A DNA stretch of 64,000 nt from Candidatus Micrarchaeota archaeon. Its GTDB lineage: Archaea > Micrarchaeota > Micrarchaeia > Anstonellales > Bilamarchaeaceae. The stretch spans positions 7,133 to 71,132 of the forward strand of contig JAFGCC010000025.1 of NCBI GenBank assembly GCA_016932815.1, in the 5' to 3' direction. The position numbers and the translations under genes are program-made. The notes below the pieces were generated by a model. The model searched no databases, had not been told where the DNA came from, and was given only the letters and a program-made list of their open reading frames with translations. Of the stretch, positions 1 to 63,801 are shown one piece after another (positions within the stretch are counted from its first letter, which is position 1; each line of letters starts with the position of its first letter).

Positions 1-476
<476 letters not shown>

Positions 477-477
477 C

Positions 478-744
478 TTGTACGTCGTAATCGCCTATGA
501 TATCTCGATTGAGCGGGTAAACAAGGTTAAGGGTTATCTGCGTACGCAACTTACTTGGGTGCAGAATTCGCTTTTTGAGGGAGAACTGACCAACTCGCGC
601 TTTTTGGAAGTCAAATCAAGGTTGGCGGAGTTTGTTCAGAGTCCAGACGATAGCATAATAATTTATATCCTTTCTGATAAACGCTTTGTATCGAGGGAGG
701 TCATGGGTATGAAAAAGGGCAGCCCGGAGGATACGATTTTATGA
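478..744 (+). CDS. cas2: CRISPR-associated endoribonuclease Cas2
   Basis: The translation LYVVIAYDISIERVNKVKGYLRTQLTWVQNSLFEGELT...IIIYILSDKRF is a typical Cas2 fold signature (VxxYDI...VQ.SVFE). The likely start is the TTG at 478, right after the cas1 stop at 474-476. The longer ORF from 331 overlaps cas1 and is unlikely. Confidence 0.8.
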   Translation: MYVVIAYDISIERVNKVKGYLRTQLTWVQNSLFEGELTNSRFLEVKSRLAEFVQSPDDSIIIYILSDKRFVSREVMGMKKGSPEDTIL

Positions 745-3241: not shown

Positions 3242-3279
3242 TTATAAACAATTCGAGGGGAGGTTTCCGGCTTTCCGAA

Positions 3280-16939: not shown

Positions 16940-17017
16940 ATAAACTCACCGCACAATCCCAAACATTTGTGATAAAAGTTTATTAATCTTCCTAATCTTT
17001 GTCTGGAAAATTTGAGA

Positions 17018-17031
17018 AAAATAATAAATAC
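17018..17031 (+). promoter_or_regulatory. Putative archaeal TATA box for glnA
   Basis: AAAAATAATAAATA lies about 45 nt upstream of the glnA ATG, in a 135-bp AT-rich divergent intergenic region shared with lrp. Confidence 0.35.
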
Positions 17032-17073
17032 TTCCAAATTTCCACCCCAATCACAAACAAAAGGGTGCGAACA

Positions 17074-18399: not shown

Positions 18400-18512
18400 G
18401 CCCGCATCAGGCTGCAGCATCCTTGGGGCCGGAAGCTTCCCCCTTGAATACTGGGGGGAACTCCGGTCCCTCCCTGCATTTTGTTTTTCCTTGCTGCCTC
18501 TATGTTGCCGGC

Positions 18513-19028: not shown

Positions 19029-19131
19029 GGTTCAAGTAATTCAGGGGAAACTTTATTTAGGTTCGCAAAACACTTCCCTGCAGAGTGCAACAAACCAAAC
19101 GTTTTTATAGATTGCCTCCAAATCCCGAAGT

Positions 19132-22071
19132 ATGTGCAAAAACTACGCATTTACCGCAGCAATTTTGCTGTTTCTGGCGTTCTCGGCATCGTTTGCGATA
19201 GACGTTTCCTCGTGCAACACCACGATTAACGCCTCCGGCGAATACGTCCTGACCTCCAACCTGAGTGGCGCAGGAATTAGCGTAACCGGAATCGACCAGG
19301 TCGCTGAGGCGTGCATACTAATCCAGGCGAGCGACGTTTCAATTGACTGCAACGGGTACAACATTTCCAACAACGGCACATCCGATGCAGCGGGAATAGC
19401 CGCAAACGGCACGGCTTCCAGCACATACACCAACATAACAATCAAGAACTGCCCTTCAATAGACGGATACTTCTCCCAGGTAATACTCAACCACACTGCC
19501 AATGGCAGCATACAAAACGTAAGCGCCCACAACAGCGCTGCGGTAGGCGTATACCTTATCTACACTTCCGGCACCAACCTGACCAACAGCACGTTCTATG
19601 ACGTGGATTATGGGGCATATATCTACAAGTCCAACTCCACTTTCGTTGCTAACACCACAGCATATGCAATCGGGACCATGGGCATACTCCTTGAAAATTC
19701 AAGCTACTGCACAGTGGCAGAGAACATGGTGCACAACTGCTCCACGTATGGGGGCATTGCCATGTATTACGATTCCGATTACAACATGATAATAAACAAC
19801 AGTGTCTGGAACTCCACAGTCGGGGTTGAGCTAAACAGGGTTTCCCACAACAACTTCACCCGGAACCTGCTCTGGGACAATGCATATGCGGGAGTCTATG
19901 CCAATAACGTGTCATGGGAGAGATTCGAGTCTAATACGATATACAATAATACCGATTGCGGGATGAATCTTAGTGCTTTCTCCAACAACACTCTCCTAAA
20001 CAACACCGTGCGCAACCATACCAACACGTATGGGATATACCTGCACACGTACTCTGGATGGAACAACCTCACCAATAACACGGTTTATGGGAATGAAGAC
20101 AGCATATACTTTACCGGCTCAACATACAATGTCCTGCGCGGGAACTTCGTGTACGACAACGAAGAGGGGATTTACTTTATTGGTTCGGCACACAACCTGG
20201 TGTGGGGAAACTTCGCGTATGACAATAATGATGTAGGGATATATCTGGACACTGGTTGCAATTACACCAATATTACAAATAACACAGTCTATGGTAATTA
20301 CGATGGATTTTTTCTGGAAGGGGGCGTAGGTAATAGGGTCTGGGAGAACCAGGCTCGGGATAATTCTGAAGGATTATACGTGCATTCTACAGGATATAGC
20401 TACTTTTATGACAATGACCTGCACCTTAATGTAGATGGCGGAGTCATATTCGTCAGCCACTCGGACAACAATACTCTGGCAAACAATACCGTGCGCAACT
20501 GCCAGGACTATACGTCGGTATCCATTGCCGATTCCGACAACAACACCATAACTGGCAACATGGTGTATGGTTCGTTGGATTACGAGGGATTCTATTTCGA
20601 CACCGTTATGGAAACGCTCGTTGCAGACAATGTGGTGTATGATTGCGGCGACGATGGGATATCCATGTATTATGGCGTGGAAACAACGATTGCCAATAAT
20701 ACTATATACAATGGTTCCAACGAGGGTATCTACCTCTACCGCTGTACAAACGTTACAGTTGAGGGCAATACAATACACTACAGCCCGGATTATCCTGGTA
20801 TCTCCATGTATCGTTGCCCCAACGTTACCCTATCCAGCAACATCCTCTATGCAAACCTTCAGGCGGTATATCTGCGTGACAGCAACTACACGATGGTGGA
20901 AAATGAACTGCGCGGACCAACCGGGGCACAGGCAGACTACACGGTGCTCTCGGCAGAGGACATATTGAATGTGACGGAGCAGTACAGCATAAACTGGAGC
21001 GATTCCCCCTCAACCTTCCCGAGCGGGAAGGCTTCCTTTGCGGGCAAGTTCATCAACATAACGACCGTTGCGGGAAGCCCCAGCATAGACACGATTTCCT
21101 GGTCCTGGCTCCAGGCCGAACTCTCAGGCTACGATGAGGACACCTTTGAATTATGGAGGTACAACGGCTCCAACTGGACGCTCCTCAACGAAACTCCGGA
21201 CACTTCATCCAACCTGTTTACCCAGGGAGACCTGGTACCCTCAAGCATATACGGAATCCTCCAAACCCCCTCGAATGAATCCGGAGGCACTGATGTGGAG
21301 GACTACGAATGCCTCTCCTCGTCCGAATGCCCCGACTGCTACATCTGCAGCGGCCACGAGTGCGTGCTTCCTTCGGGCTCATGCGCAACTGCCTCGGATT
21401 GCTCAGGAGGATACCCGTTCTACACCTGCGAGGAGTGCTCCTGTGTAGGGCACCAATGCAACGTTGATTCTGATTGCGGCGCGGGATACTCCTGTGAAAA
21501 CGGGGCGTGCGTCCCGCCAGAATGCACGCAGGATTCGGACTGCGATGCGGGATATTCGTGCGAGAATTACGAGTGCACTCCCCCGGAGTGCCTTGAAGAT
21601 TCCGACTGCACAGCAGGAGCAACCTGCTCAAACTACGAATGTACTCCTCCAGAATGCACGGTGGATTCCAACTGCAAATCCGGGGAGATGTGCGAGAACT
21701 ACGTGTGCGTCCCATGGAAGTGCAAGGCCAACGCAGACTGCCAGAATGGCTTCTACTGCGACAAGGGGGCGTGCAAGAAAGAGAGCATCCCCGGAGGCCC
21801 GGGAAGCAGCAGCGGAGGAACTCCCTCGGGAACACCCGGAGGAACCGGGGAAGCGGAAGTTCCCCAACCTGAAGAAGAGGGCCCCGGAACGGAACAGGTG
21901 GAATATGCGTTCCCGTTCCTTGAAGGGGAAGCCGGAAGCGGCATAATGCCCGCAATCCAGGTTAGCGAGGAACTAAAGGTTTCAGGATGGTGGATATTCC
22001 TGTTCCTCCTGATTCTTGTGGGAGCATTCTACTTCCTGCAAACTAGGAACAAGGGAAGGCGGGAAGAGTAG
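19132..22071 (+). CDS. Large secreted surface protein, paralog 2 (beta-helix + GSPSID module + Cys-rich repeats + C-terminal TM anchor)
   Basis: Signal peptide MCKNYAFTAAILLFLAFSASFA. NosD-like PbH1 repeats. The module FINITTVAGSPSIDTISWSWLQ...FELWRYNGSNWTLLNETPDTSSN. A C-terminal cysteine-rich array ending in a TM helix (WWIFLFLLILVGAFYFL) followed by a basic tail. Confidence 0.75.
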   Translation: MCKNYAFTAAILLFLAFSASFAIDVSSCNTTINASGEYVLTSNLSGAGISVTGIDQVAEACILIQASDVSIDCNGYNISNNGTSDAAGIAANGTASSTYTNITIKNCPSIDGYFSQVILNHTANGSIQNVSAHNSAAVGVYLIYTSGTNLTNSTFYDVDYGAYIYKSNSTFVANTTAYAIGTMGILLENSSYCTVAENMVHNCSTYGGIAMYYDSDYNMIINNSVWNSTVGVELNRVSHNNFTRNLLWDNAYAGVYANNVSWERFESNTIYNNTDCGMNLSAFSNNTLLNNTVRNHTNTYGIYLHTYSGWNNLTNNTVYGNEDSIYFTGSTYNVLRGNFVYDNEEGIYFIGSAHNLVWGNFAYDNNDVGIYLDTGCNYTNITNNTVYGNYDGFFLEGGVGNRVWENQARDNSEGLYVHSTGYSYFYDNDLHLNVDGGVIFVSHSDNNTLANNTVRNCQDYTSVSIADSDNNTITGNMVYGSLDYEGFYFDTVMETLVADNVVYDCGDDGISMYYGVETTIANNTIYNGSNEGIYLYRCTNVTVEGNTIHYSPDYPGISMYRCPNVTLSSNILYANLQAVYLRDSNYTMVENELRGPTGAQADYTVLSAEDILNVTEQYSINWSDSPSTFPSGKASFAGKFINITTVAGSPSIDTISWSWLQAELSGYDEDTFELWRYNGSNWTLLNETPDTSSNLFTQGDLVPSSIYGILQTPSNESGGTDVEDYECLSSSECPDCYICSGHECVLPSGSCATASDCSGGYPFYTCEECSCVGHQCNVDSDCGAGYSCENGACVPPECTQDSDCDAGYSCENYECTPPECLEDSDCTAGATCSNYECTPPECTVDSNCKSGEMCENYVCVPWKCKANADCQNGFYCDKGACKKESIPGGPGSSSGGTPSGTPGGTGEAEVPQPEEEGPGTEQVEYAFPFLEGEAGSGIMPAIQVSEELKVSGWWIFLFLLILVGAFYFLQTRNKGRREE
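21290..22071. repeat. Roughly 0.8 kb dispersed repeat copy A (3' Cys-rich/anchor region of surface-protein gene 2), highly similar at DNA level to 29520-30325
   Basis: Long runs of identical nucleotides are visible, for example ..TACATCTGCAGCGGCCA.GAGTGCGTGCTTCCTTCGGG.. and ..TGGAA.TGCAAGGCCAACGC.GACTGCCAGAA.GGCTTCTACTGCGA... Confidence 0.7.
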
Positions 22072-22306
22072 GCGCAGGGGGAATTTCTCCCTGCCCATAT
22101 CCTTTTTCTTATTCTTGGGCCCCAAGGGGCTCCTCCAGCTTTTTTGCAGCCGCAGCCTCAATAAAGTTTATATATTTTTGCCTTGTTATCCTGCTATTGC
22201 AACGGGTGTGGGTCCGAACCGCCGCATAATGGGCATTTGCATAAAATGCGCATTTAACGGGAGAGGCGGCAGCGGATTTGATGGGAATGCTAGCATATTG
22301 CAGCAT

Positions 22307-25300
22307 ATGGTGAAGACAATGAACAAAGGATTGGTTTTGCTTGGAATTCTGGTGCTTTTTGGGGCGGTTTTTTCAGCCGGGATGGGACATAGGGAAGTTT
22401 CGTACAGGGACAACGACAAGGTTGCGGAAATCTGGCACGATTCTTCCAAGATGGCAACCGTTGAAATCAGGAATTCAATGGAAAAGCGCGGCGGCCTCAA
22501 TTACCTGACCGACTGCGGAATCCTTACCTGCTCCCTTTATCTTAGCGTTTCCGCAGAATCCGCAATGGGAATTAGCGGGGCCGCAAGCAACCTCCACGCA
22601 ACGTACGCAGGAACATATTACAAAAGCATAGAACCCGTTGAAATAAAAGAGCCAATCTACGAATTCGTTGAAGAAGAATACACTTATGAAGAATGCGCAA
22701 ACACGACAATCGAGGAGGATGGCAGAAACGAGACCTCCCTCGAGTGCACCGAATCAACAGGCACCAGGACTGCAAGGATAATCACCGGATACGAAACGCA
22801 CATGGAAATGCGGGAAGTGTGGAAAGAGGAGCCCGGAAGGTTCGGCCACGGCCCCGTGGAAGTGAGGATTGATTTCGTAAAAGACGACCCCGCCGCGGTA
22901 GTGGACCTCTTTGCGGTAGTTGACAATGCCCGCATTGAGAGGTGGGCATGGTGGGATAGCAGTTGGCTCTACAAAGTCAGGGTAAACCTCACTTCCGGAG
23001 TGGAGGAAACCCTGAATGATTATCCCGCGCATTTCCAGCTGGACACCGCCACCCTGATTGGCGATTCTAAGATGCAGTCAGACTGCGGCGACCTCCGCGT
23101 AGTAAGCTGCGATGAGAGCGGGGAGGTCCCATTCGAGATGGAATATTGCAACCAGGGCAACACCGACATTTACGCAAGAGCGACCCTTGAGCCTTCCCCC
23201 GCGCTAAACTGCGTCTACGTATACTACGGGAACCCCGGAGCAGAAGACGGGCAGGACACCTGCAACGTCTGGAGCAACAATTTCACGAGGGTTTACCACT
23301 TCGAAGAGCCTATTTATTCGGGAAGCATGTTCGACAGCTCCTGCCACGCAAACGGAAGCTACAACGGGACAGGCTACATGGAAGATGGCATATGGGGAAA
23401 CGGAGTCCGGCTCTACGCCAACTCGGTAACATACGTGGAATTCCCCAATACGTACGAATGGGCGGACGGGAACGCATCATTTAGCATATGGGCAATCGCA
23501 AACTCCTCCCAATATGTGGGCAATACAATCTTCTCCCTGGTCAGCGCCTACACGGACCGCACGGGCCTTTGGGGGTGGAGCGTGAAACTATATCCCCAGA
23601 ACATTATAGCAAACGCGCGCATGGCGGATGTAATAGTTGAGTCACAGCCAAGCGGCGACACGAGCATGACCGGGAAATGGAACTCATGGATGCTCTGGTC
23701 GGTATCCCAGAACTTCTCAGGATACGGAAGCGCAATGTTCGTAAACGGGAGCCTGGTCGCAACCCAGGCCAACTCAGCCGTGAACAACGGCTACCCGGGG
23801 GTGCACATCGGCAACGATTACATATACCAGAATAGGGCCTGGAGAGGGGCCTTTGATGAGTACCGCGAGAGCAACGTAACAAGGAGCGCAAACTGGACGA
23901 TGGCGGAATTCCTGCAGGATTATGTGGTTGGAAACGAGGAATACCCCGAATCCACTCTTGCCAGGACGTCAATGGCCCTATCTCCTTCCACGCTGTACAT
24001 AGACGTGGTGGATGTTACCTGCTCTGTGAGCTATGACTCATCTGTGGACGAAGAATTCACCGCAAGCATGGGCCTGGCCATAAACGGGGTCCCAATAGGG
24101 GAATTCAACGTTACAAACAGCACATACCAGAACAAGGTTGTGTGGAACCAGACTTTCAGCGTGGAGGATTATACGCCCCTGGGGTCAAACCTCTCCTGCT
24201 GGAGCGAGGCCCACGATATTGAAACAACGCTTGAGATAGCATACACCGAGAACAAGAGCATAACCAACCTCGTGCCAGGATGCATGGTCTTAGATGAGGC
24301 GGGAACCTTTGAGCTAGAGGGCGGCATCTACGGAGCAGAAGACGTAAGCGGGGTATCCGGAATCTCAAGCGCGTGCGTGATAATCAACCATGGCGAAGTT
24401 ACGCTAAACTGCAGCGGCTACTCAATGGACGCAAACAACACCCCGGATTCTGCGGGCATACTGGTAAATGCAACCGGGGCATTGATTACTAACTGCCCCT
24501 CAATTTCCAGCTATGAAAAGGGAATCTATTTCCAGAACGTGCAGCAGGGGGCGGCGGAAAATACGAGCGCCTACAATTCAACCGAGGCAATAGCAGTCTA
24601 TGCCTCCTCTGGGATAAACCTCACAGGATGCATCTCCCACAACAGCACAAAAGGGATAATGCTTGATGGTGCGACCGGAATCCGCCTGGAAGGCAACATC
24701 TTCTTTGGCAACGGCTACGATTTCCATGTGGGCAACAGCAACTACACGATGCTCACCAATTACTTTACCCCGGATGGAACATTTACCAATTACACGAACC
24801 TCAGCGTGGCTGATGCCGTAACGCTTTCCGGGGCTTACATGGTTAGCTGGAGCGCAAACCCCGGCGTCGCGATTGCGGGCACGAGCTTTGCACAGAAATT
24901 CATCAACATCACCACAATTGGCGGAACGCCATCAATAGATGAATTGAACTGGAGCTGGAGCTGTTCGGAGTCATTGTGCTACAAGGAGGAAACGCTCAAC
25001 CTCCACCACCTCAATTCCACGGGGGGCTGGACACTCTTGAACGACACCCCGGACACGGCCAACAACGTCCTCACGCTCTATGATTTGGAGCCAGAAGGCG
25101 TTTATGGGATTTTTGACAACAACCTGCCTCCAGGGGTGGGGAACGTGACATTGAACACAACCAACGCAACCAACTCATCTTTGGAAAACCTGACATTGTA
25201 CATGGATTCCTATGACCCCAACGGGAACAGGATAAAGAACATAACCAACTGGTATTATGGCAACAATTACAAGGGCCCCAATGCGCCGACTAGTTCCATA

Positions 25301-26401
25301 ACCGCCCTCAATATGCCCTTTGAAGGCGGAAGCTGCCCGGAGTACACAAAGGACTACTCCAACCACTCCTACAACGGGACCGTGGTCGGGGCGACCTGGA
25401 ACGCAACCGGAGGGCACGACGGGTACGGAGCCTACCATTTTGACGGGGACGATTACATCACGGCTTCCGACTCTTTGCTTAACCTGCCAAGAGGATATAC
25501 GATGTCCGCCTGGTTCAACACTTCGGACAAGAGCCGCGACCACTTCGTCTTGTCCTGGGGGAGCAACACCCCGCTTGGCGCAAGGAGCATATTCGTGGAA
25601 GAAGGTACGGGATATTTCTCCTTCTCAGGATACGTGGAAACCTACCACACGTCTGTTGATGTGGCAGACGGGGAATGGCACCTGCTGAACGCAGTGCACG
25701 CTTCCGATGACATGGTAACCTTCTACGTTGATGGGGAATATGCGGGAGGGGACGGGCTGCCCCTGACTCAGACAATTACCTACACGGAAACGGTAATCGG
25801 GGCCGACCCTGACAAGGCGCAGAACGCCAATGCGACAATAGATGACGTGGTGATTTTCAACCGCGCCCTGAGCGCGGAGCAGATCCAGGCACTCTATGAG
25901 AACCGGACGGACATAATCGTGCCAGAAGAAACAGAGCTTTCGGACAAATGGTACACCTGCGTGACTCCCAACGACGGGACGCTGGATGGGAACGAAACCT
26001 GCTCAAACGACATGTTCCTAAGTGGCATCACATCATGCATGCAATTAAACTCCATAGCGAATTACACCCTGGTAAACGACATATATGGCGCCCCTTTTGA
26101 GCTTGACCCGTCAATGGGCGTTTTAGATGTGTGCCTGGCCCCCTACGCATGGGCAACCATAGACTGCAATGGCCATAGCATAATAAACGATGGCACCCCC
26201 AACGCTGCAGGAGTGATACTCAGGGATTACGGAGAGAACACGCGGGACTGCGCGTTTATTGCAGGCTATGAGGTAGGCATTTACTTCCACGGCGCAGACC
26301 ACTCGGAAATCAGGAATGTAACAACCGCAAACTCGACGGGGTCCGGAATATACATCTATAGCTCCGAACACATTAGTATCGTCAATTCCACCCTCGGGTA
26401 A
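22307..26401 (+). CDS. Large secreted surface protein, paralog 3, with two LamG/ConA-like lectin domains and beta-helix repeats; C-terminally truncated relative to its paralogs
   Basis: Signal peptide MVKTMNKGLVLLGILVLFGAVFSAG (ATG at 22307; the ORF is open from 22016 but overlaps gene 2). It carries the Laminin_G_3 hallmark ATIDDVVIFNRALSAEQIQALYE plus a second degenerate copy. It has a GTPSID module. It ends inside a beta-helix head domain without Cys-rich repeats or a TM anchor. Confidence 0.7.
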   Translation: MVKTMNKGLVLLGILVLFGAVFSAGMGHREVSYRDNDKVAEIWHDSSKMATVEIRNSMEKRGGLNYLTDCGILTCSLYLSVSAESAMGISGAASNLHATYAGTYYKSIEPVEIKEPIYEFVEEEYTYEECANTTIEEDGRNETSLECTESTGTRTARIITGYETHMEMREVWKEEPGRFGHGPVEVRIDFVKDDPAAVVDLFAVVDNARIERWAWWDSSWLYKVRVNLTSGVEETLNDYPAHFQLDTATLIGDSKMQSDCGDLRVVSCDESGEVPFEMEYCNQGNTDIYARATLEPSPALNCVYVYYGNPGAEDGQDTCNVWSNNFTRVYHFEEPIYSGSMFDSSCHANGSYNGTGYMEDGIWGNGVRLYANSVTYVEFPNTYEWADGNASFSIWAIANSSQYVGNTIFSLVSAYTDRTGLWGWSVKLYPQNIIANARMADVIVESQPSGDTSMTGKWNSWMLWSVSQNFSGYGSAMFVNGSLVATQANSAVNNGYPGVHIGNDYIYQNRAWRGAFDEYRESNVTRSANWTMAEFLQDYVVGNEEYPESTLARTSMALSPSTLYIDVVDVTCSVSYDSSVDEEFTASMGLAINGVPIGEFNVTNSTYQNKVVWNQTFSVEDYTPLGSNLSCWSEAHDIETTLEIAYTENKSITNLVPGCMVLDEAGTFELEGGIYGAEDVSGVSGISSACVIINHGEVTLNCSGYSMDANNTPDSAGILVNATGALITNCPSISSYEKGIYFQNVQQGAAENTSAYNSTEAIAVYASSGINLTGCISHNSTKGIMLDGATGIRLEGNIFFGNGYDFHVGNSNYTMLTNYFTPDGTFTNYTNLSVADAVTLSGAYMVSWSANPGVAIAGTSFAQKFINITTIGGTPSIDELNWSWSCSESLCYKEETLNLHHLNSTGGWTLLNDTPDTANNVLTLYDLEPEGVYGIFDNNLPPGVGNVTLNTTNATNSSLENLTLYMDSYDPNGNRIKNITNWYYGNNYKGPNAPTSSITALNMPFEGGSCPEYTKDYSNHSYNGTVVGATWNATGGHDGYGAYHFDGDDYITASDSLLNLPRGYTMSAWFNTSDKSRDHFVLSWGSNTPLGARSIFVEEGTGYFSFSGYVETYHTSVDVADGEWHLLNAVHASDDMVTFYVDGEYAGGDGLPLTQTITYTETVIGADPDKAQNANATIDDVVIFNRALSAEQIQALYENRTDIIVPEETELSDKWYTCVTPNDGTLDGNETCSNDMFLSGITSCMQLNSIANYTLVNDIYGAPFELDPSMGVLDVCLAPYAWATIDCNGHSIINDGTPNAAGVILRDYGENTRDCAFIAGYEVGIYFHGADHSEIRNVTTANSTGSGIYIYSSEHISIVNSTLG

Positions 26402-26632
26402 GCCTGAACCGGGGAGGCAGAGCGCCGCCGGCACGCTGAGCGCATGGCAGCAGGGGCACACGGCAAGCGGGGCGCCCCCCTGCAATCGGCATTCCGCCTG
26501 CGCCTCCCGCTTCCTAGGAAACGGGGCGTGCGGGCGCAGGGGCATCCCGGCATTGGGCGCAATCGCCCCACCCCCGCTTCTCTGAGGGCACCCATCACAA
26601 CATTTATATCCGTTGTCTGCAATCCATTTGGT

Positions 26633-29600
26633 ATGTGCAAGAATTTCGTTAAATTGGCAGTATTGTTGGCATTTTTCGCATTCTCCCTCTCCTTTGCGGT
26701 GGATGTCAGCACGTGCCAGGCGATTACCTCTTCTGACACGTATGACCTTACAACCGACCTTACGGGGGCGCCAATAGCAATAACCGGAATATCGCAGATA
26801 GATCAGGCGTGCCTGGCAATCCAGGCTGACAACGTAGTCATAGACTGCCATGGCCACTCAATTAGCAACACAGGGGTTTCCGATGCTGCAGGGATAGCGA
26901 GGAACCTGACTTCCACAAGCACGGTGACAATCCGCAACTGCAGGATTGCATATTACCACCAGGGTATCTCCCTGAGATACCTCTCGGGGGGAGCCGTGTT
27001 GAACAACACGATATTCAACACCTCGCACTACGGGCTTTCGATGTCCCAGAGCTGCTCTGGCACCGTAGTTTCCAACAACACGTTCCACAACAACACCGAC
27101 CATGCGTTGTACATTGGGGGGAACTCCGATAACAACATCATTACCAACAACACCCTATGCAACACAAGCGGCGCGTTTTCGGCCTTTAATCTGGGCAGCA
27201 ACTGCGAATACAATACTTTCGAAGGGAACCTCCTCTATGGAAACTATGTGGGCATAGAGCTTGGCTATGCCTCCAACAACAGCATCGAGAACAACACCAT
27301 AAGGAACAATAGCTGGCATGCAGTCGTCATGGACCATGGCGGGGACAACAACCTGACCAACAACATAGCCTATGGCAACTATTACGGGTTCTACGTTGAC
27401 CCCTATTCGCAGGGAAACGTTTTCGTAAACAATACTGCCTACGACCACATCTATTACGGGTTTTACGTCTACCGCGATAACGAGGGCACAACCCTAATCA
27501 ATAACACCGCCTACGGCAACAGGTATGGTTTCACGGTCGGTGCAGATTCCCACAACACCACCCTGTGGGGGAACACCGCCTACGAAAACGAGGACGGTTT
27601 CAGCATAGCCTCAAGCGACAACACCCTGACCAACAACACCGCATACAACAACACCCACCGTGGGTTCTACCTGTATACCGGCTACGGGAACACGCTCATA
27701 AACGACACTGCATACAACAATGGGGATGAGTTCTGCGTAATAGGCAGCAACTACACGCTGGAGTCGTTCCTCTTCCTAAACCCGTCCGGCTCCCAGGTGA
27801 ATTACACCAACCTTTCAATAGGCGACATCATGGACACCTCCTCGGAGGAATATGCGATAGGGTGGGGCGAATCCCCCGGCTCTTCCCCCAGCGACAGGAG
27901 TTCATTCGAAAACAAGTACCTCACGATATCCGCTGCGGGCGGCAGCCCAAGCATAGATACAATAACCTGGCACTGGCAGGATTCGGAGACTTCCGGATAT
28001 GTGGAAGCAATGCTTGAACTCTGGAAGTACAATGCTTCGGGTTGGACGCTCCTAAACAACACTCCTGACACTTCCGCCAATACGCTAACGCAGTATGCAA
28101 TGTCCCCTTCAAGCACATATGCGATATTCGAAAACGTTTCCGTGGACTGCGAAGTTATCTCCTCCCCGGGCACTTACAACCTCTCCTCCAACCTCAGCGG
28201 CGCCCCGAACCCGCTCTCCACCGTGGCGGGGACTACCGCCGCGTGCATAATAATCGCCTCTTTGGGCGTAACCCTAGATTGCAAGGGCTTTACCATAACC
28301 AACAACGGCACTTCCGATGCGGTAGGAATAGCCGTAAACGGCTCTTCCACGATAGATTACACCGGAGTGGCGATACAAAACTGCCCGGATATCCATGGCT
28401 ATGAAAACGGGGTGCAGCTATACCGCACCGCCGCAGGCACAATACGGAATTCAAGCATGTCGGATGGGCGGTATGGGATATACGTGTATGCTTCCCAGAA
28501 CAATTCGATAACCAACAACACCGTGCACAACAACTCCCAGGATGGGATATACCTGTATTCAAGCGTGGGCAACAACGTAACGGGCAACACCGTGCACAGC
28601 CATTTCTCAGCAGGGATTGCCCTCAGCACGCTGTCTATGCACAACAACCTCTCCAACAACGTGCTATACAACAATTCCGACCCGAGCTTCTACATCTCGC
28701 TTAGCTCCAACAACACGATTTCCAACAATACCGTCTACAACACTTCTGGTTCCGGGATATACCTCTTCTCATCCTCCGAATGCAACCTTACCGGCAATAC
28801 GGTATATGATAGCACCAGCGGAATAGAACTCAACTCGAATTCAATGCGCAACAGGGTAAGCGGCAACACGCTTTATGATAACGCAATGTGCGGAATCTGG
28901 CTCCAGTCCAGCTCTTCCAACAACACGGTATACGATACCTCGGTGTCCAACAACACTTACGGGATTTTCGCGCTCCAGAGCCACGACAACAACTTTACCG
29001 AAAGCTTCATCTGCAACAATTCGGATTACGGGCTTTACATGGTCTCTAGTTACGGGAACAGGCTGGCCAACTACAGCATCTACGGCGACCAGTATGGCGT
29101 ATACTCTTCGAGCAGCAAGTACGTGCTGGATACTGTCAGCTTCCTTCCCTATGGCGGTGAGTCCGTGGATTATTCCGCCCTCTCGCTCACCGATTCCAAC
29201 GGGGCAGGCGCATACAGGATAAACTGGAGTGCCACCCCGGGAAGCTCCCCTTCCTCGCGGAGCAGTTTCGAGAACAAGTTCCTCAACATTTCAACCGCTT
29301 CCGGGAGCCCCAACATAACCAGCATAGAGTGGAGCTGGGAAGATTCGGAATCATCCGGATACACTGAATCGGACTTTGAGCTCTGGAAGTACAACGCTTC
29401 CGGCTGGACGCTCCTAAACGACACCCCTAATGTCTTTTCCAATACGCTAACCCAGTATGCAATGCTGCCAGGAAGCATATACGGAATCTTCGCATATGAA
29501 ACTCCCACTTCCACAGGAGGGGATGATGAGGATTATTCGTGCATGACTTCCTCGGACTGCCCGGAATGTTACATCTGCAGCGGCCATGAGTGCGTGCTTC

Positions 29601-30325
29601 CTTCGGGTTCGTGTGCAACCTCTTCCGATTGCTCGGGCAGCGCCCCATTCTACAACTGCGAGGGCTGCTCGTGCGTTGGATACGAGTGCAATTCCGCTTC
29701 GGACTGCGGCGCAGGGTACTCATGTGAAGAAGGCGAATGCGTGCCCCCAGAATGCACGCAGGATTCCGACTGCGATTCCTTTGGGGCAGGATATTCATGC
29801 GAGAACTATGAATGCGTGCCCCCGCAGTGCCTAAATGACTCTGCCTGCGGTGCAGGCGGAACCTGCTCAAACTACGTTTGCATCCCCCCAGAATGCACAA
29901 GCAATTCCAATTGCGGTTCAGGCAAGGTGTGCGAAAACTACAAGTGCGTGCCCTGGAAATGCAAGGCCAACGCCGACTGCCAGAACGGCTTCTACTGCGA
30001 CAGCGGAGTATGCAGGAAAGAGAGCATACCCGGAGGCCCTGGCGGAAGCAGCGGGGGCAACGGAGGCTCCGGAGGCAAGCAGGCAGGTGAATCAGTTGGC
30101 GAAGCGGAAGTGCCACAGGAGCAGGAGCCAGAAACCGAGCAGGTAACCCAGCCATTCCCGTTCCTAGAAGGAGACACTGAGGGGGGAATAATCCCCAACG
30201 TAGTGATAAACGAGGAAACCAAGATTTCAGGCGGATGGGTGTTCCTATTTGCGCTTGCGGCAGTTGCGGTGCTCTACTTTGCGTTCCACAGGGGAAGGAG
30301 AAGGGGAAGGGAAAAAGAGGAGTAG
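26633..30325 (+). CDS. Large secreted surface protein, paralog 4 (internally duplicated beta-helix + module, Cys-rich repeats, C-terminal TM anchor)
   Basis: Signal peptide MCKNFVKLAVLLAFFAFSLSFA, homologous to the gene 2 N-terminus. Two beta-helix plus GSPSID/GSPNIT module units. The C-terminal Cys-rich region is near-identical to gene 2. TM helix GWVFLFALAAVAVLYFAF followed by RGRRRGREKEE. Confidence 0.75.
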   Translation: MCKNFVKLAVLLAFFAFSLSFAVDVSTCQAITSSDTYDLTTDLTGAPIAITGISQIDQACLAIQADNVVIDCHGHSISNTGVSDAAGIARNLTSTSTVTIRNCRIAYYHQGISLRYLSGGAVLNNTIFNTSHYGLSMSQSCSGTVVSNNTFHNNTDHALYIGGNSDNNIITNNTLCNTSGAFSAFNLGSNCEYNTFEGNLLYGNYVGIELGYASNNSIENNTIRNNSWHAVVMDHGGDNNLTNNIAYGNYYGFYVDPYSQGNVFVNNTAYDHIYYGFYVYRDNEGTTLINNTAYGNRYGFTVGADSHNTTLWGNTAYENEDGFSIASSDNTLTNNTAYNNTHRGFYLYTGYGNTLINDTAYNNGDEFCVIGSNYTLESFLFLNPSGSQVNYTNLSIGDIMDTSSEEYAIGWGESPGSSPSDRSSFENKYLTISAAGGSPSIDTITWHWQDSETSGYVEAMLELWKYNASGWTLLNNTPDTSANTLTQYAMSPSSTYAIFENVSVDCEVISSPGTYNLSSNLSGAPNPLSTVAGTTAACIIIASLGVTLDCKGFTITNNGTSDAVGIAVNGSSTIDYTGVAIQNCPDIHGYENGVQLYRTAAGTIRNSSMSDGRYGIYVYASQNNSITNNTVHNNSQDGIYLYSSVGNNVTGNTVHSHFSAGIALSTLSMHNNLSNNVLYNNSDPSFYISLSSNNTISNNTVYNTSGSGIYLFSSSECNLTGNTVYDSTSGIELNSNSMRNRVSGNTLYDNAMCGIWLQSSSSNNTVYDTSVSNNTYGIFALQSHDNNFTESFICNNSDYGLYMVSSYGNRLANYSIYGDQYGVYSSSSKYVLDTVSFLPYGGESVDYSALSLTDSNGAGAYRINWSATPGSSPSSRSSFENKFLNISTASGSPNITSIEWSWEDSESSGYTESDFELWKYNASGWTLLNDTPNVFSNTLTQYAMLPGSIYGIFAYETPTSTGGDDEDYSCMTSSDCPECYICSGHECVLPSGSCATSSDCSGSAPFYNCEGCSCVGYECNSASDCGAGYSCEEGECVPPECTQDSDCDSFGAGYSCENYECVPPQCLNDSACGAGGTCSNYVCIPPECTSNSNCGSGKVCENYKCVPWKCKANADCQNGFYCDSGVCRKESIPGGPGGSSGGNGGSGGKQAGESVGEAEVPQEQEPETEQVTQPFPFLEGDTEGGIIPNVVINEETKISGGWVFLFALAAVAVLYFAFHRGRRRGREKEE
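29520..30325. repeat. Roughly 0.8 kb dispersed repeat copy B (3' region of surface-protein gene 4)
   Basis: It pairs with 21290-22071. The encoded peptides differ at only a handful of positions. Confidence 0.7.
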
Positions 30326-58783: not shown

Positions 58784-59332
58784 ATGAAAATGAAAAAAGG
58801 GCAAGCCGCCATGGAGTACCTAATGACGTACGGGTGGGCGATACTTGCAATCATAATCGTGATTGCCGCTCTCATCTACCTTAATCCGTTTAGCGCTCCT
58901 GAGCTGTGCCTGTTCCAGCAGCAGGGCTTCTCTTGCAGCGAGCCCCAGCCACAGGTTTACCTAAACGACCAGGGCGAGGTCATGATGAACGTCCGCATCT
59001 GGAATAAGCTTGGGAAGAGCATAGAGATCAAGAGGGTGTTCTGCACTACCGCGCAGACTTCCGAAGTGGACTCTAGTAATTCCCATGTGCATGTCGTTCC
59101 CGGTGATGATGGGCACTTGGTCCCCACGGGTTCGTACATGACCTTCAGCGGAGACCCCAACGCACATGATACTGGCATCGCCTGCTACAATGCAGACGAC
59201 AACGAATTGCAGCTGGCCCCGAACCAGGAGTTCCGCGGAAGGCTGATTGTCTGGTACAACTACGAGAATGACCTTGACAAGACAATCCTCCACGAATCTC
59301 AGGCAAACGTAATCTCGCTGGTAGTCGAGTGA
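58784..59332 (+). CDS. Archaeal type IV pilin (class III signal peptide, EppA/FlaK-type substrate)
   Basis: MKMKKGQ|AAMEYLMTYGWAILAIIIVIAALIYL has the basic n-region, KG followed by Q at +1, Glu at +5 and a hydrophobic stretch. It is preceded by the secretion ATPase and FlaJ-like genes. Confidence 0.7.
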   Translation: MKMKKGQAAMEYLMTYGWAILAIIIVIAALIYLNPFSAPELCLFQQQGFSCSEPQPQVYLNDQGEVMMNVRIWNKLGKSIEIKRVFCTTAQTSEVDSSNSHVHVVPGDDGHLVPTGSYMTFSGDPNAHDTGIACYNADDNELQLAPNQEFRGRLIVWYNYENDLDKTILHESQANVISLVVE

Positions 59333-59374
59333 GCCTGGAATTCCTTCTTTATTTTATTTTTTCCTTTTTTATAT

Positions 59375-59386
59375 CCCTTTAAAAAC
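59375..59386 (+). promoter_or_regulatory. Putative TATA box (CCCTTTAAAAAC) about 23 nt upstream of the ATG at 59408
   Basis: Consensus-like archaeal TATA in an AT-rich 75-bp intergenic region. This implies a near-leaderless transcript. Confidence 0.35.
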
Positions 59387-59407
59387 ATTCTCTAACACAT
59401 TTTATCC

Positions 59408-62389
59408 ATGCCGTCTGGACCTACGAGCATTGGCAGGGTAAATTCCATCCGTGCAGTCCCAAGAAGGTGCGCATCTTTCCCCTCCACATCCATAATGGAG
59501 CCAGAGAAGCACAGCCGCTTTTATAATCTGGCGAACTTCCTAAAAGACAGATTTCTGAATGCTATTTTGACATTCTCTGCGGCAATCGTATCCAAACCTG
59601 GAACATCCGGCTTTGGGAGGAAGGGCCTGCTCTTTGCAGGCATGGTCCTGGGTGCGATAGCAGCCTCCTGTTCTTCCCCAGCCCCCAATCCGGATGCTGG
59701 CCAAACCGACCAGAGCCAAGAGATTGTGGTATCGGAGAATGTGCACGTGATTCCAGATGATCAGGCGGCACAGGCAAGGCTCCTTGGGGATGATGTGGTT
59801 TTCCCGGCAGATGGGAACGAAGACTTGATAACTCTGGATAAAGAAGACATAATCGTTTCTGGGTACGAGAGGGGGTTCCTTCGTGAAGTGAGGGGAGTTG
59901 AGGAAACGGACGATGAGATAATCCTCCGTACGAAGCAGGCAACCCTTGAGCAGGTTTTTGAGAAGGCACATTTTGAATACACAATCTCCATCAAGCAAGA
60001 AGAACAGCCTGCATCCCCAGTAACAAGTTACGCCCTGCTTCCGGAAAGGCCAGAAGATGAGATTGATAGCTCCTTTTTTTGGGATTTCAGCGGAACAGTT
60101 CTTTGCGATGGAGAGTCTAGCAAATGTGGTTTGCCACTATATGTTGAGATAGAACATGGAAGAGTGGAGTTCGCCCCCCACCTGGAAGCGGAAATTGTGA
60201 TAACCGATAATCAATTGGATTACTTTAGGTTTGAGGCTGGAGGGGACTTTGCTGCGAGTATAGAGCTGGAGGCCAAGCCCGAAAGACAACTCAAGGCGGA
60301 ATTCAAAGAAGAGATAAAGATTGGTGAATATTGGACTGTGTTCTGGACCCCTAGCGTCCCCCCAATTCCTATAGTTAACGGGACCGTAGGGTATCTGGTG
60401 CCTGGTTTCGAGATAGATGCCGGTGCGGAAGTTTCATTTGGTGCCGGAGCTAAGTCCAGTCTGAGAGTGGGGGCAGAGTACGATTCTGGAAAATGGGAAA
60501 CCATAAACGAGTTCTCTTTTGATTATTCAAGTTATGGTCCCAGTTTGGATTTTGAGGTGGGTGTGGAAGCCAAAGCATATATCTATCCAACATACTACTT
60601 CAATCTTTATGGGGTTGCTGGACCTTATCTTTACATGGGCCCGAATGCATATCTCGATTTGGAGGTATTTCCTGATTGTGAATGGGAATTGGGCGCAGGC
60701 GCATATGGGGAAATTGGGGTTCAGGTTAATGTTCTGGGAGAAACGATAGCAGGGTATGGGGAAACATTATTCAATGAGAGGGTACCGATTACTGAGGGAG
60801 TCTGTTGGGAGGGAGATAGTGCTCTGGATACCGATTATAATTTGGATACTGGAACTTGGGACGAGTTAGATACTGAAAATTGGGATAGTGGGGACGCGGG
60901 CACAGTTCTGGATGCGGGGATCCCCCAGGATACGGACACTGATTCAGAGAATGATAGTGAAGGTGATTCTGAATCAGCAGTAACTGTTGATCTGCCTGGA
61001 ACACTTGCGTGGGCAAAGCACGTTGGCAGCGAAGGTTGGGATTATCCAGAAGACATTGCAGTATTTGAGGATGGATCCTTCACACTCATTGGTGTTGTCC
61101 GGGGTAAGAATGATTGGGAGAGCATATCCTTTGGTGAGGATGAGCAAAACAGAATGGATTTGCCATACGTTGGAGGGCAGTCAGGAGATTTTTTCATTGC
61201 AAGATACGACAAAGAAGGTTCACTATCTTGGGCTAGGTCTGCCGGAAGTGCAGATGGAGATGATGCCCGGGGCGTACTTGCTCTTCCTGATGGCTCGTCA
61301 GTAGTGGTAGGGGAATTTACACGGAGCCCAGTAATCTTCGGGAGGGGCGAATCCGATGAAATTTCTTTGAGCACTGAAAAAGAATCAGATTACGTTTCTT
61401 TTGCTACAGGTCCAGGCCTTGGTTCGTTTATAGCTAAATACTCTCAGGATGGCACTCTTCTCTGGGCTGAAGCTAACGAAGCAGACTGGTGCGAAGATGT
61501 TTCATTCCTTTCCGATGGCTCGTTTGTTATGGTTGGAAACTTTAGGGGTCCCGAAACGGTTTTTGGCGAAGGAATGCCAAACGAAACAATTCTAGCCGAG
61601 ACAGATGGGTCCATTTTTATTGCAAGATATAGTTCTGATGGGGAGTTTCTCTGGGTAAAATCCGCGGGCATGGGCGGAGGAGAGCTTACTGGTCGTTCGT
61701 TATATGATAAGGTTAATGCTGTAGATTCTGTTTCAGGCGATTCAGTGGTGCTCGCAGGACACTCTACTGCGGGGGTTCTTTTCGCTAAAGGGGAATCCAA
61801 TGAAACTATGACCCGCCGTATTGATGGTTTGTTCATAGCAGAATATTCTGCAGACGGAACCTTTGGTGGTGTTAAACTGTTTGATGATGCATATCCTCAT
61901 GATATGGGGGTTTCTTCAGATGGTTCAATTCTTTTAGTGGGGGATCAGAGTCGTTTGGGGGATACTCCCTTTATTTCTAAGTATGTCTCTGGAGATACCT
62001 TCTCTTGGCTTAATTCCGTATCCGGGGAAGGGGAGGGGGTGGCATCCGACCTCGCAGTTTTTCAGGATGGTTCTTCTGCAGTAATAGGCACGTTTGAAGG
62101 TTCCGCGACCTTTGGTGAAGGAGAGGCTAATGAGACGACTTTGGATACCGGGGAGGACGCAGGAACATTTGTTGCCAGGTACACTCAAAGTGGGAGCCTT
62201 CTATGGGTAACTATGGAAGGAAATCCCGCGTATGATTTTGGCAACGCCTTGGAAGCACTCCCTGATGGTTCCCTTCTATTGACTGGAACTTTTACCGGAA
62301 GGGTTGTCTTTGGCAAAGGTACTCAAAACGAAACTATTTTGGAAGCCCCAGAGGATCGCGAGGACATCTTTATTGTGAAGTATTACTAA
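59408..62389 (+). CDS. Large secreted lipobox-containing protein with C-terminal beta-propeller-type repeats; compositionally distinct gene
   Basis: Lipobox-like LGAIAASC. An acidic D/E/T-rich linker. At least 7 repeats of the DGSxxxxGxF.......FIARYxxDGxLxW type. It is noticeably more AT-rich and uses more A/T-ending codons than its neighbours. The exact start is uncertain. Confidence 0.5.
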   Translation: MPSGPTSIGRVNSIRAVPRRCASFPSTSIMEPEKHSRFYNLANFLKDRFLNAILTFSAAIVSKPGTSGFGRKGLLFAGMVLGAIAASCSSPAPNPDAGQTDQSQEIVVSENVHVIPDDQAAQARLLGDDVVFPADGNEDLITLDKEDIIVSGYERGFLREVRGVEETDDEIILRTKQATLEQVFEKAHFEYTISIKQEEQPASPVTSYALLPERPEDEIDSSFFWDFSGTVLCDGESSKCGLPLYVEIEHGRVEFAPHLEAEIVITDNQLDYFRFEAGGDFAASIELEAKPERQLKAEFKEEIKIGEYWTVFWTPSVPPIPIVNGTVGYLVPGFEIDAGAEVSFGAGAKSSLRVGAEYDSGKWETINEFSFDYSSYGPSLDFEVGVEAKAYIYPTYYFNLYGVAGPYLYMGPNAYLDLEVFPDCEWELGAGAYGEIGVQVNVLGETIAGYGETLFNERVPITEGVCWEGDSALDTDYNLDTGTWDELDTENWDSGDAGTVLDAGIPQDTDTDSENDSEGDSESAVTVDLPGTLAWAKHVGSEGWDYPEDIAVFEDGSFTLIGVVRGKNDWESISFGEDEQNRMDLPYVGGQSGDFFIARYDKEGSLSWARSAGSADGDDARGVLALPDGSSVVVGEFTRSPVIFGRGESDEISLSTEKESDYVSFATGPGLGSFIAKYSQDGTLLWAEANEADWCEDVSFLSDGSFVMVGNFRGPETVFGEGMPNETILAETDGSIFIARYSSDGEFLWVKSAGMGGGELTGRSLYDKVNAVDSVSGDSVVLAGHSTAGVLFAKGESNETMTRRIDGLFIAEYSADGTFGGVKLFDDAYPHDMGVSSDGSILLVGDQSRLGDTPFISKYVSGDTFSWLNSVSGEGEGVASDLAVFQDGSSAVIGTFEGSATFGEGEANETTLDTGEDAGTFVARYTQSGSLLWVTMEGNPAYDFGNALEALPDGSLLLTGTFTGRVVFGKGTQNETILEAPEDREDIFIVKYY

Positions 62390-63582
62390 GTCCCAACTTT
62401 CTTCCCGCGCCCCATCGCATTCACAATAACCGGGAACAAATCCCAGCCATCCATGTGCCCCATTCCCCCTTCCATGCAAGAAAATTCATCGAACTTCTTA
62501 ACAGAATCCTTCCTGAACCCGTCCCCGCAGAAGAGTATGGGAACCTCGTGCCCGCTGTGCTTTCCGCTGGCGCATAAGGTGGAGTGGTCCCCGGTAAGGA
62601 CAATCCCCGCTTTCGTTTTCGCAAGGAGCGGGATGAGCTCTTTATCCACCCTTTCTATGAACTTGCGCTTTCCCCCGCAGTCCCCATCATGCGAAAAGCT
62701 GTCCGTAGCTTTTACGTGCACGAAAACGAAATCATGGTTTTTAAGCGCGGCAGCAGCCTTCTTCCCCTTGTTCTTCAAATTGGTATCCTTGGCCCCGGTT
62801 GCCCCCTCAACTTCCAAAACGTCCATCCCGATGTACCTTGCAACCCCTTTATACAGCGCCCCGCCTGCGATGCAAGCGCCGCTAAAGCCGTTTTTCTTTG
62901 CAAAAGGCTCAACCTCGCAGTATGCGCCTGCGCCCCTGCACAAGACCGCGTTTGCGGGCAGTTTCCGCCCCTTGTTCTCAGGCGCCTTGCCAAGTGCCGC
63001 CATCGCCCTTTTAGTGAACTCATTTAGTATTTTGGCAGTCTTCTCCGAGCCCTTCTTTAGCGCCCTAGACTGTGGCACCGCAACCTTTGCGTGCGGGTCG
63101 GTATCAGAAACCTCCGCCCCAAGATTGGAGCCGCGGATAACCAGCATCCCCCTATGCTCAACTGTGCTCCTAAACATCACCGTGCACCCCTCAATCTCCA
63201 TGTCCCTTATATACTTTTCCAACTTCATTGCAGCCGAAGTCTCAATCCTCCCTGCCCTCCTGTCTATGATTTCCCCATTCTCCACAGTGGCAAAGTTCGC
63301 CCTGAATGCAACGTCCCCCTTCCTTAGTTCCATCCCGGAGCCCAGAGCCTCAAGCGGGCCCCTCCCGCAATAAGATTCCCAGTAAGGGTACCCAAGCAGG
63401 GTAAGGTGCGAGGTGTCGCTTCCTGGGACGTTTCCCCTCCCGATGGGAGAGAGCATCCCGCAGATTCCCGCTTTCGCGAGCTTGTCCATGTTCGGGGTTT
63501 TCGCACCCGACAAAGGAGTCTTCCCCCTGGAATCCGGGAGGTCCCCAAGCCCGTCTAGTATAATGAGTATCGCTTTTTGCAT
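62386..63582 (-). CDS. apgM: 2,3-bisphosphoglycerate-independent phosphoglycerate mutase, archaeal type
   Basis: MQKAILIILDGLGD...VFVHVKATDSFSHDGD...GDHSTLCASGKHSGHEVPILF matches ApgM. Confidence 0.85.
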   Translation of the reverse strand: MQKAILIILDGLGDLPDSRGKTPLSGAKTPNMDKLAKAGICGMLSPIGRGNVPGSDTSHLTLLGYPYWESYCGRGPLEALGSGMELRKGDVAFRANFATVENGEIIDRRAGRIETSAAMKLEKYIRDMEIEGCTVMFRSTVEHRGMLVIRGSNLGAEVSDTDPHAKVAVPQSRALKKGSEKTAKILNEFTKRAMAALGKAPENKGRKLPANAVLCRGAGAYCEVEPFAKKNGFSGACIAGGALYKGVARYIGMDVLEVEGATGAKDTNLKNKGKKAAAALKNHDFVFVHVKATDSFSHDGDCGGKRKFIERVDKELIPLLAKTKAGIVLTGDHSTLCASGKHSGHEVPILFCGDGFRKDSVKKFDEFSCMEGGMGHMDGWDLFPVIVNAMGRGKKVGT

Positions 63583-63801
63583 ACTCCCAAACTCCAAAAC
63601 AATAAATTAAAGCTTTTTGGAGTTCAGAGCCTCTCCAAAGCAATATGCCATTTAGGGCCCATAGCCCTCCCCGCCATTAGTATACATATTGCGCAATTTT
63701 AAAGAAATCTGCCAGATGCACAGAATAGCGGAAACGCGATTATCAGACGTAATTGCGGAATAGCGGAAACGTACCCTCTTCTTCCAAATGCTTATTAAAC
63801 C

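Follow-up and report, generated by a model that had tools for sequence, protein, structure and literature searches.

A codon-atypical gene for a predicted beta-propeller surface protein between pilin and apgM in a Candidatus Micrarchaeota archaeon

Proteins of the DUF5122/delta-60/SBBP type carry seven repeats of ~66 aa that form a propeller at the extreme C-terminus, and many of them also have a lipobox-like motif and an acidic linker; no papers on 'DUF7223' or 'delta-60 repeat' were found in the literature, and no experimentally known function was found for DUF5122/delta-60 members. An extended stalk with a terminal propeller is also the architecture of collagen-like fibre proteins of giant viruses. 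For archaea, lipobox lipoproteins are described from the AliA/AliB pathway of Haloferax volcanii, and in DPANN predicted lipoproteins are reported to be common and the candidate lipidation enzyme AliA to be present with some gaps (PMC12462473). The gene described here is a single complete open reading frame (ORF; 59408..62389, + strand; 993 aa) on a stretch of 64,000 nucleotides of a Candidatus Micrarchaeota archaeon (DPANN; NCBI GenBank assembly GCA_016932815.1, contig JAFGCC010000025.1), hereafter the window, and lies between a type-IV-pilin-like gene and a convergent apgM gene.

The predicted protein resembles the DUF5122/delta-60 proteins in its repeats and in the position of the propeller, but differs from them in its DPANN host, in a ~70-aa N-region before the hydrophobic segment, and in an extra N-terminal module. 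As in the H. volcanii-type lipoproteins, a hydrophobic stretch is followed by [A][S]-Cys; however, the Cys is residue 88, behind a long conserved N-region, and position -3 is Ala. The giant-virus fibre heads are the closest overall fold found, but with 16-19% identity and a collagen triple-helix stalk in place of the acidic linker, and the analogy is one of architecture only. Two homologues, P0010 (701 aa; Logan SRR21285597, locus L086) and P0065 (591 aa; ENA ERZ27256772, locus L109), share with the gene the TATA box and its spacing, a leader with an invariant Cys, an acidic Asp/Thr-rich (D/T) linker and the C-terminal seven-blade propeller, but are without the ~360-aa N-terminal module (N-module). 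P0010 occupies the same pilin/apgM slot and is largely adapted to the codon usage of its host; P0065 lies in a different neighbourhood and shares a low G+C content at third codon positions (GC3) with one neighbour. We consider it rather probable, from codon usage and gene order, that the gene of the window is a horizontally acquired, lineage-specific surface gene.

Codon usage and gene order at the pilin/apgM junction

Composition was compared within the 64-kb window only, which stands for the host, with its 38 other long ORFs as reference. The gene has a G+C content of 0.479 and a GC3 of 0.422, compared with 0.655 +/- 0.038 (range 0.509-0.739) for the 38 window ORFs (z = -6.1), and in its synonymous codons it diverges by 0.184 from the remainder of the window, versus 0.02-0.04 for other genes of ~1000 aa. 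G+C contents at first and second codon positions are ordinary, and the deviation is therefore one of synonymous codon choice. An earlier note, made from the sequence alone, had described an AT-richer segment with distinct codon preferences, which returns to host-like composition at apgM, and the profile bears this out as a clear departure from the window average: GAT (0.80 vs 0.43 in the rest), TTT (0.65 vs 0.33) and ATT (0.45 vs 0.25) are raised, and apgM has a GC3 of 0.661. The listed TTA, however, is barely in excess (0.06 vs 0.03), and the main signature is that of T-ending codons, i.e. GGT (0.24 in the gene, 0.06 in the rest), TCT (0.27, 0.09), ACT (0.36, 0.14) and AAT (0.66, 0.26). The AT-rich segment had been placed from about 59340; this holds for the spacer upstream of the gene (59333-59407; G+C 0.27), but the shift is graded, with an intermediate GC3 of 0.50-0.57 over the first ~180 codons and of 0.25-0.47 over the remainder, and the strong shift begins near 59950. 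Four large secreted proteins of the beta-helix/NosD type in the window (13229-30325) are host-like (GC3 0.63-0.69), and surface location alone therefore does not explain the shift.

The gene follows a pilus operon that encodes, in this order, a coiled-coil protein, a FlaI/TadA-like ATPase, a 560-aa protein (p560), two TadC-like membrane proteins and, as the final gene, the archaeal type-IV-pilin-like protein (58784..59332, + strand; 182 aa; class III signal KGQAAMEYL). On the other side lies apgM, the gene for an archaeal cofactor-independent phosphoglycerate mutase (62386..63597, - strand), the stop codon of which (62386-62388) is overlapped by the TAA stop of the gene (62387-62389, + strand). 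With the pilus ATPase, 80 loci were retrieved, nearly all of which are labelled Micrarchaeota or Micrarchaeia, with Aenigmarchaeota also represented, and these were searched with all window proteins (homologue threshold, E<=1e-4). The best match of the pilus ATPase (87% identity) is in a metagenome-assembled genome (MAG) of Micrarchaeia (L002), and the order of the pilus operon is kept across the Micrarchaeota loci L002-L078. A homologue of either half of the protein was found in none of the 80 ATPase-anchored loci; in 15 of them the matches to pilin and apgM are 55-210 nt apart, and in L002, the nearest relative without the gene, the actual spacer between pilin and apgM measures 44 bp and includes a hairpin and a T-run. 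The apgM product of the window is 72-78% identical to those of L002 and L086. The gene order is rigid except at the pilin/apgM junction, which is thus variable and into which the gene is inserted. Unrelated, lineage-specific ORFs stand at this junction in L004 (9581-10783; 400 aa), L006 (15712-16419, - strand) and L007 (15662-16312, - strand; 216-235 aa for the latter two), and genes have therefore been gained repeatedly at this position.

P0010 was found by an exhaustive HMMER search. The order on its contig is TadC, pilin and P0010, followed by a convergent apgM and a partial ORF at the contig end; the flanks are 87% (TadC), 71% (pilin) and 78% (apgM) identical to those of the window, and are nearer to the window than the flanks in L002. 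The two orthologues have diverged very fast, and a domain was gained or lost between them: the propellers are 39% identical and the first 103 residues 52%, versus 71-87% for the flanking genes, and P0010 has no counterpart of aa ~105-465. P0010 has a GC3 of 0.61, versus 0.78-0.81 in its flanks. Because P0010, the nearest homologue, holds the orthologous position in a closer relative, either the acquisition predates the split or the locus was overwritten later, i.e. the gene at this site was already present in the common ancestor of the window organism and L086, or insertion or overwriting took place there repeatedly. A vertical orthologue in a close relative, which the earlier note had named as an argument against transfer, is thus found in part, in that P0010 sits in the same slot.

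Promoter, leader and modules of the predicted protein

The spacer upstream of the gene (59333..59407, + strand) begins with a T-rich run after the pilin stop, which is followed by the promoter. A TATA-like box CCTTTAAAAA is located at 59376..59385 (+ strand), and its 8-mer TTTAAAAA ends 22 nt before the ATG; the presence of such an element had been noted earlier, and it is conserved in both homologues. The CCTTTAAAA box is invariant and its 22-nt spacing to the ATG identical in the window, L086 (P0010) and L109 (P0065), the contigs of which have G+C contents of ~0.53, 0.58 and ~0.41-0.48 (three genes), respectively. A spacing of 22 nt from box to ATG matches an archaeal TATA box before a leaderless mRNA. 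Because the invariant box stands at this distance in three homologues, the transcript of the gene would probably be leaderless from its own promoter and start at ATG 59408 (M1). Gene callers place the start at M30 (P0001, 964 aa); M1 is favoured because of the promoter geometry, because the alignment with P0010 is conserved from M1 onwards (aa 1-29, upstream of M30, are ungapped), and because P0010 has no start between M30 and the hydrophobic segment. An internal start just before the hydrophobic segment was ruled out, as P0010 has no in-frame ATG, GTG or TTG there.

The conserved N-region (aa 1-72; 59408..59623, + strand; MPSGP...MEPEKHSR..FLKDRFLNA..SAAIVS..GFGRKG; GC3 0.55) is 52% identical to that of P0010, without gaps, and 36-40% identical to that of P0065. 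It is predicted to be cytoplasmic, or to form an unusually long n-region of a signal peptide. A hydrophobic segment (aa 73-87, LLFAGMVLGAIAAS) and a lipobox-like AAS-C88 follow (59624..59671, + strand); it is the only hydrophobic segment, as no other 19-aa stretch of the protein exceeds 1.6 on the Kyte-Doolittle scale, on which this one peaks at 2.19 (aa 81). All three leader-bearing homologues keep the Cys, in AAS-C, ASS-C and ATS-C contexts. The segment may be either an uncleaved N-in/C-out anchor or be cleaved and lipidated at Cys88. The bacterial-style lipobox LGAIAASC of the earlier note is present; it comprises, however, residues 81-88 of the precursor and is not near the N-terminus, and such a motif is not by itself a bacterial mark because predicted lipoproteins are reported to be common in DPANN (PMC12462473). 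A signal for twin-arginine translocation was considered and rejected, as the RR at aa 19-20 is not kept in P0010 (NR) or in P0065. A scan of the metagenomes of the Joint Genome Institute with the leader only gave no matches.

An N-module of ~360 aa, which the earlier note had missed and which represents a separate family, extends over aa ~105-465 (59720..60802, + strand); it is predicted to be composed of a small subdomain (aa ~105-185; GFLREV motif), for which the prediction is confident, and long beta-hairpins (LYGVAGP motif). The module shares 27-32% identity with P0003, a protein of 1077 aa with a canonical bacterial-type lipoprotein signal, and 22% with P0005; a metagenome scan with the module gave 19 loci, with L088 as the best (33-34% identity). 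The members of this family (weakly DUF7223; P0003, P0005, L088-L106) share with the protein the GFLRKV and LYGVAGP motifs and the position, which in the relatives is always directly after the signal or lipobox, and L088 also has a lipobox and a poly-Asp (poly-D) linker. They differ in their partner domains; as read from translations, the C-terminal parts of the relatives are FGE-sulfatase-like, leucine-rich-repeat-like, FISUMP-like or other repeats. The module itself is below all Pfam thresholds (no match at E<=1), and weak matches to DUF7223 (PF23865) were obtained for three of 16 aligned sequences of the family (best, 1.8e-07). No relatives of known structure were found by a profile search of PDB sequences, and scans of viral contigs with the profile of the module and with the whole protein gave no matches. 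In a word-index protein search, the whole protein gave three matches and a two-sequence profile of the module gave two; the module alone gave none, which is an unreliable negative, since even the identical P0001 was missed. The contig of L088 (717-6560), which carries the best N-module homologue, encodes several paralogous proteins, each with the same signal MKTRLTLLLV...ACAGG, poly-Asp linkers and repeats of the type LKYATNATGSW...YTSIALDS..HISYYD. P0005 (L082, 294-1985; lipobox-like LNGC) lies between secE and spt5(nusG)-rpl11 in an AT-rich archaeon (G+C of a contig with the same protein, 0.30), and is a second case of a conserved gene cluster interrupted by a member of the N-module family.

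An acidic linker rich in Asp, Thr, Glu and Ser (aa 466-530; 60803..60997, + strand; Asp plus Glu 32%, Ser plus Thr 22%) connects the N-module to the propeller. The Asp/Glu/Thr-rich linker described earlier is hence present, but it separates two folded modules instead of following the Cys directly. In P0010, P0065 and many bacterial members of the family, the lipobox is followed by D/T-rich linkers of a similar kind.

The C-terminal part (aa 531-993; 60998..62386, + strand) is a seven-bladed beta-propeller of the DUF5122/delta-60/SBBP type. PF17164 (DUF5122) is matched with 29.5 bits by the whole protein and 36.3 bits by the C-terminal domain (cutoff 27), and TIGR02608 (delta-60 repeat) with 38.9 bits, under its cutoff of 76.5. 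The exhaustive HMMER search yielded 23,174 representatives at E<=1e-3, of which 854 reach E<=1e-30; among the matches listed, 144 representatives align end to end (at least 420 of 469 residues, 31-39% identity), and PF17164 is matched by 36 of 37 aligned sequences, including the C-terminal domain itself. The family consensus is a unit of ~66 aa repeated seven times (DGTLxWAKxAGG..D..GIAxLxDGS..VTGxFxGxATFGxGExNETxL...G..DxFxARY). At least seven propeller-type repeats had been reported for the protein; the number of F[IV]x[RKE]Y blade motifs is exactly seven (aa 596, 674, 737, 809, 855, 921 and 988), and FIVKYY, the strand at the C-terminus, lies where it could complete the first blade, which starts with LAWAKHVG, and so close the ring. 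The fold predicted by AlphaFold2 from a 37-sequence alignment is an all-beta propeller (mean predicted local distance difference test score, pLDDT, 89.7; predicted template-modelling score, pTM, 0.91).

The best match of this model in the PDB is the seven-bladed propeller of CylK (E = 3.8e-17; template-modelling score, TM, 0.69; 18-19% identity); in BFVD, the terminal propellers of collagen-like fibre proteins of giant viruses match with TM 0.75-0.84 and a root-mean-square deviation of 2.8-4 A, as do some phage structural proteins. Among the top 149 propeller relatives, 44 have a lipobox-like motif near the N-terminus, several have D/T-rich linkers, and in 77 the final strand of the propeller (FxA[KR]Y) is the end of the protein. 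Few of the relatives are named, either as from a 'Proteobacteria bacterium' MAG (GY847) or by the label 'delta-60 repeat protein' only. The propeller of the window is a long branch, with 38-40% identity to the family members compared, versus a family median of 46%.

Two close propeller relatives on a pair of loci (L108, 8001-11498; L107, 6100-10098) have particular neighbours: P0024 adjoins genes for DnaN, Rad52, a PDDEXK nuclease and an archaeo-eukaryotic-type (AEP) primase, and P0053 is downstream of a gene for a Peptidase_S74 protein (tail-spike chaperone type). Because of these mobile-element or phage-like settings, there are hints that such propellers may travel on viruses or serve as receptor-binding heads.

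Origin and role of the gene

Two criteria of horizontal gene transfer apply to the gene, i.e. atypical composition and patchy presence at a syntenic site (the window and L086, versus 15 empty loci and the other cargo in L004, L006 and L007). The earlier proposal of a horizontally acquired surface protein agrees with the foreign codons, with the absence of the gene from the junction in many relatives, and with the combination of beta-propeller and single hydrophobic segment. A low-GC archaeon with the promoter-leader cassette would probably be the immediate source, because the relative synonymous codon usage (RSCU) of the gene correlates more closely with that of P0065 (0.57) and of a P0065 neighbour (0.50) than with that of its own genome (0.23, window). 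P0065 has a GC3 of 0.336, like one neighbour (0.350), the other, partial neighbour having 0.61; no pilin was called on its 5-kb contig. Bacterial-type lipoprotein signals are found in many members of the two families to which the modules of the protein belong, and a bacterial origin of the modules further back is likely.

Several observations weigh against this picture. The RSCU of P0010 correlates with that of its own flanks at 0.67, i.e. P0010 is far nearer to its host than the gene of the window is; a single ancestral acquisition with equal amelioration therefore fits poorly, and a later overwrite of the gene body, or differing rates, must be invoked. When kinship of the propellers was gauged by identity-based nearest-neighbour resampling, the nearest neighbour of the window propeller was P0010 in 165 of 200 cases; by simple identity, however, other family members (47-49%) are closer to the propellers of P0010 and P0065 than that of the window is (33-43%), which gives no support for monophyly of the three leader-bearing genes. 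Either rate differences or a module replacement behind the conserved leader may have caused the long branch. No marks of mobility were found, with no tRNA gene in the 64-kb window, no adjacent integrase, and no direct or inverted repeats bracketing 59333-62389. As for the lipobox, which in strict form has Leu, Val or Ile at -3, Ala, Ser, Thr, Val or Ile at -2, Gly, Ala or Ser at -1 and Cys at +1, after an h-region preceded by basic residues, IAAS-C88 agrees at -2 (Ala) and -1 (Ser), and R71 and K72 precede the h-region, but the Ala at -3 is off the strict motif; nor does the Cys stand within the first ~15-35 residues of the precursor, the usual place of a lipobox, as it is residue 88 from M1 and 59 from M30. 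Finally, the AlphaFold2 model of the N-module (four-sequence alignment; pLDDT 43.4) is confident for the first ~80 residues, and the rest is long beta-hairpins at pLDDT 25-40; a PDB fold search with this low-confidence model was uninformative (best, GFP barrels with E = 0.04). Overall, the data support an acquisition history that is older and more complex than a recent single transfer.

The same codon and synteny data bear on two other accounts of the origin. A native, vertically inherited, fast-evolving and weakly expressed surface gene, the codons of which, rich in A or T at the third position, reflect relaxed codon selection or a local mutation bias, would fit the positional orthologue P0010, with which it shares leader and promoter in a close relative, the GC3 of P0010, which is also ~0.17-0.20 under that of its flanks, and the much faster divergence of the orthologues (39% identity) than of the flanks. 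We regard this as unlikely: in 15 relatives pilin and apgM tightly abut and the junction lacks the gene, none of the 80 loci contains it, the GC3 of the other large secreted proteins in the window is host-like, and the codon usage is closer to a low-GC archaeal homologue than to the host. Very unlikely is also a direct transfer of a bacterial lipoprotein from bacterium to archaeon, in which lipobox and acidic linker would be retained bacterial features. The named propeller relatives point in this direction, as they are from the GY847 MAG or bear only the delta-60 label, and so do P0003, L088 and many top matches, in which a canonical lipobox at the N-terminus precedes a poly-D or D/T linker. 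The promoter and the 70-aa leader, however, are common only to two other genes with archaeal-type features, and the best codon-usage match is a low-GC genome that carries the same leader; the immediate donor is therefore more likely archaeal than bacterial.

Two further alternatives concern the role of the protein. An accessory subunit of the neighbouring archaeal type-IV-like pilus or an adhesin associated with it, the latter raised as a possibility in the earlier note, would suit a predicted surface protein with a binding-type fold that is encoded directly downstream of the pilin and on the same strand, but this role is quite improbable: a class III (prepilin) signal or KGQxxxEYL-type motif, as in the adjacent pilin, is missing from the N-terminus (MPSGPTSIGR...); a conserved TATA box of its own, behind a T-rich stretch, precedes the gene; the operon is complete without it in at least 18 relatives (15 with pilin directly followed by apgM, three with unrelated ORFs), L004, L006 and L007 having unrelated genes at the junction; and no pilin was called beside P0065 on its 5-kb contig. 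That the propeller is an enzyme, e.g. a CylK-like alkylating enzyme or a Vgb-like lyase, is hardly credible. CylK is the best solved structural match, but the identity is low, and the activity of CylK requires its N-terminal Ca-binding beta-roll domain (PMC8916777), which was not detected in the protein of the window. The closer folds (TM up to 0.84) are distal heads of fibres of giant viruses.

The acquired surface protein may be pictured as follows. Its composition, gene order, domain families and propeller fold and the conservation of promoter and leader are shown above; we infer its export, mode of anchoring, binding function and donor from the sequence data. A leaderless mRNA would be transcribed from the archaeal TATA promoter of the gene, starting at ATG 59408, and the product would be exported and held at the cell surface by the single hydrophobic segment (aa 73-87), either as an uncleaved N-in/C-out anchor or after cleavage and lipidation at Cys88. 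Outside the cell, flexible acidic spacers would present two modules, of which the first (~360 aa, beta-rich) is of a kind that heads diverse secreted multidomain proteins in many bacteria, and the distal seven-bladed DUF5122/delta-60 propeller would be a probable ligand-binding head. Its most likely role would be adhesin-like contact with another cell or with a polymer surface, independent of the neighbouring pilus; displayed on the surface, the protein would bind a ligand by the propeller, the N-module or both, and plausibly serve to touch a host cell or a surface, as one would expect of a DPANN episymbiont. The cassette of promoter, leader, linker and propeller would seem to move among archaea.

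More speculatively, and with considerable doubt on our part, there might be a portable archaeal 'display cassette', made up of the invariant TATA box with a leaderless start, of the ~70-aa leader that includes the hydrophobic segment and the Cys, and of an acidic linker. It would move between DPANN genomes of very different G+C content, while passenger modules of types known from bacterial-type lipoproteins (delta-60 propellers, DUF7223-like) are swapped behind it; the pilin/apgM junction would then be a recurrent landing site, and the long N-region an unrecognised class of export or anchoring signal.

Surroundings of the gene and significance

An identical copy of the gene is present on the Logan contig SRR13394437_749172, on which apgM is followed by an intein-containing MCM gene and then by his genes; the intein, with a LAGLIDADG endonuclease, is inside the MCM helicase gene that is next after apgM (L001, 12467-15934). 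At the other end of the window, a clustered regularly interspaced short palindromic repeats (CRISPR) array (848-1681) has 13 copies of a 30-nt repeat, GTCAAAATAAGACTATTGTAGGATTGAAAC, and spacers of 35-40 nt, and is preceded by the C-terminal part of cas1 (ORF 60..476) and by cas2 (331..744), as identified from translations only; the spacers gave no matches to the window or to the loci analysed. The first 5,600 nt of the window (1-5600), of low G+C content (0.44-0.48), comprise this CRISPR-cas end, a gene for a HerA/DUF87 ATPase (1682-3241, - strand), and small ORFs that resemble MazF/PemK (3280-3609, - strand) and PIN/VapC with a partner (3978-4722, - strand). They look like a defence and toxin-antitoxin island, which is compositionally distinct, as is the gene described here. 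The four beta-helix proteins at 13229-30325 are right-handed (NosD-like), 1052, 979, 1461 and 1293 aa long, and have classical Sec signal peptides, one of them with LamG; they are probably a native surface coat or adhesins.

For DPANN archaea, Micrarchaeota among them, a life attached to host cells is assumed, and their variable surface proteins are the foremost candidates for recognising the host. The gene is a fairly ordinary acquired surface gene and its product not a conserved part of the pilus. The locus offers a clean, datable case of a foreign, fast-evolving surface protein set into an otherwise rigid gene order, with an orthologue that differs by a whole domain and with a promoter-leader unit that is common to genomes of very different base composition. 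Only this conserved promoter-leader cassette, across genomes of different G+C content, is of wider interest. Should the leader truly serve as a signal for export or lipidation, archaeal lipoproteins, a subject opened only recently, would gain an atypical class with a long N-region; otherwise, the gene would be a routine case of a horizontally gained, repeat-rich surface protein.

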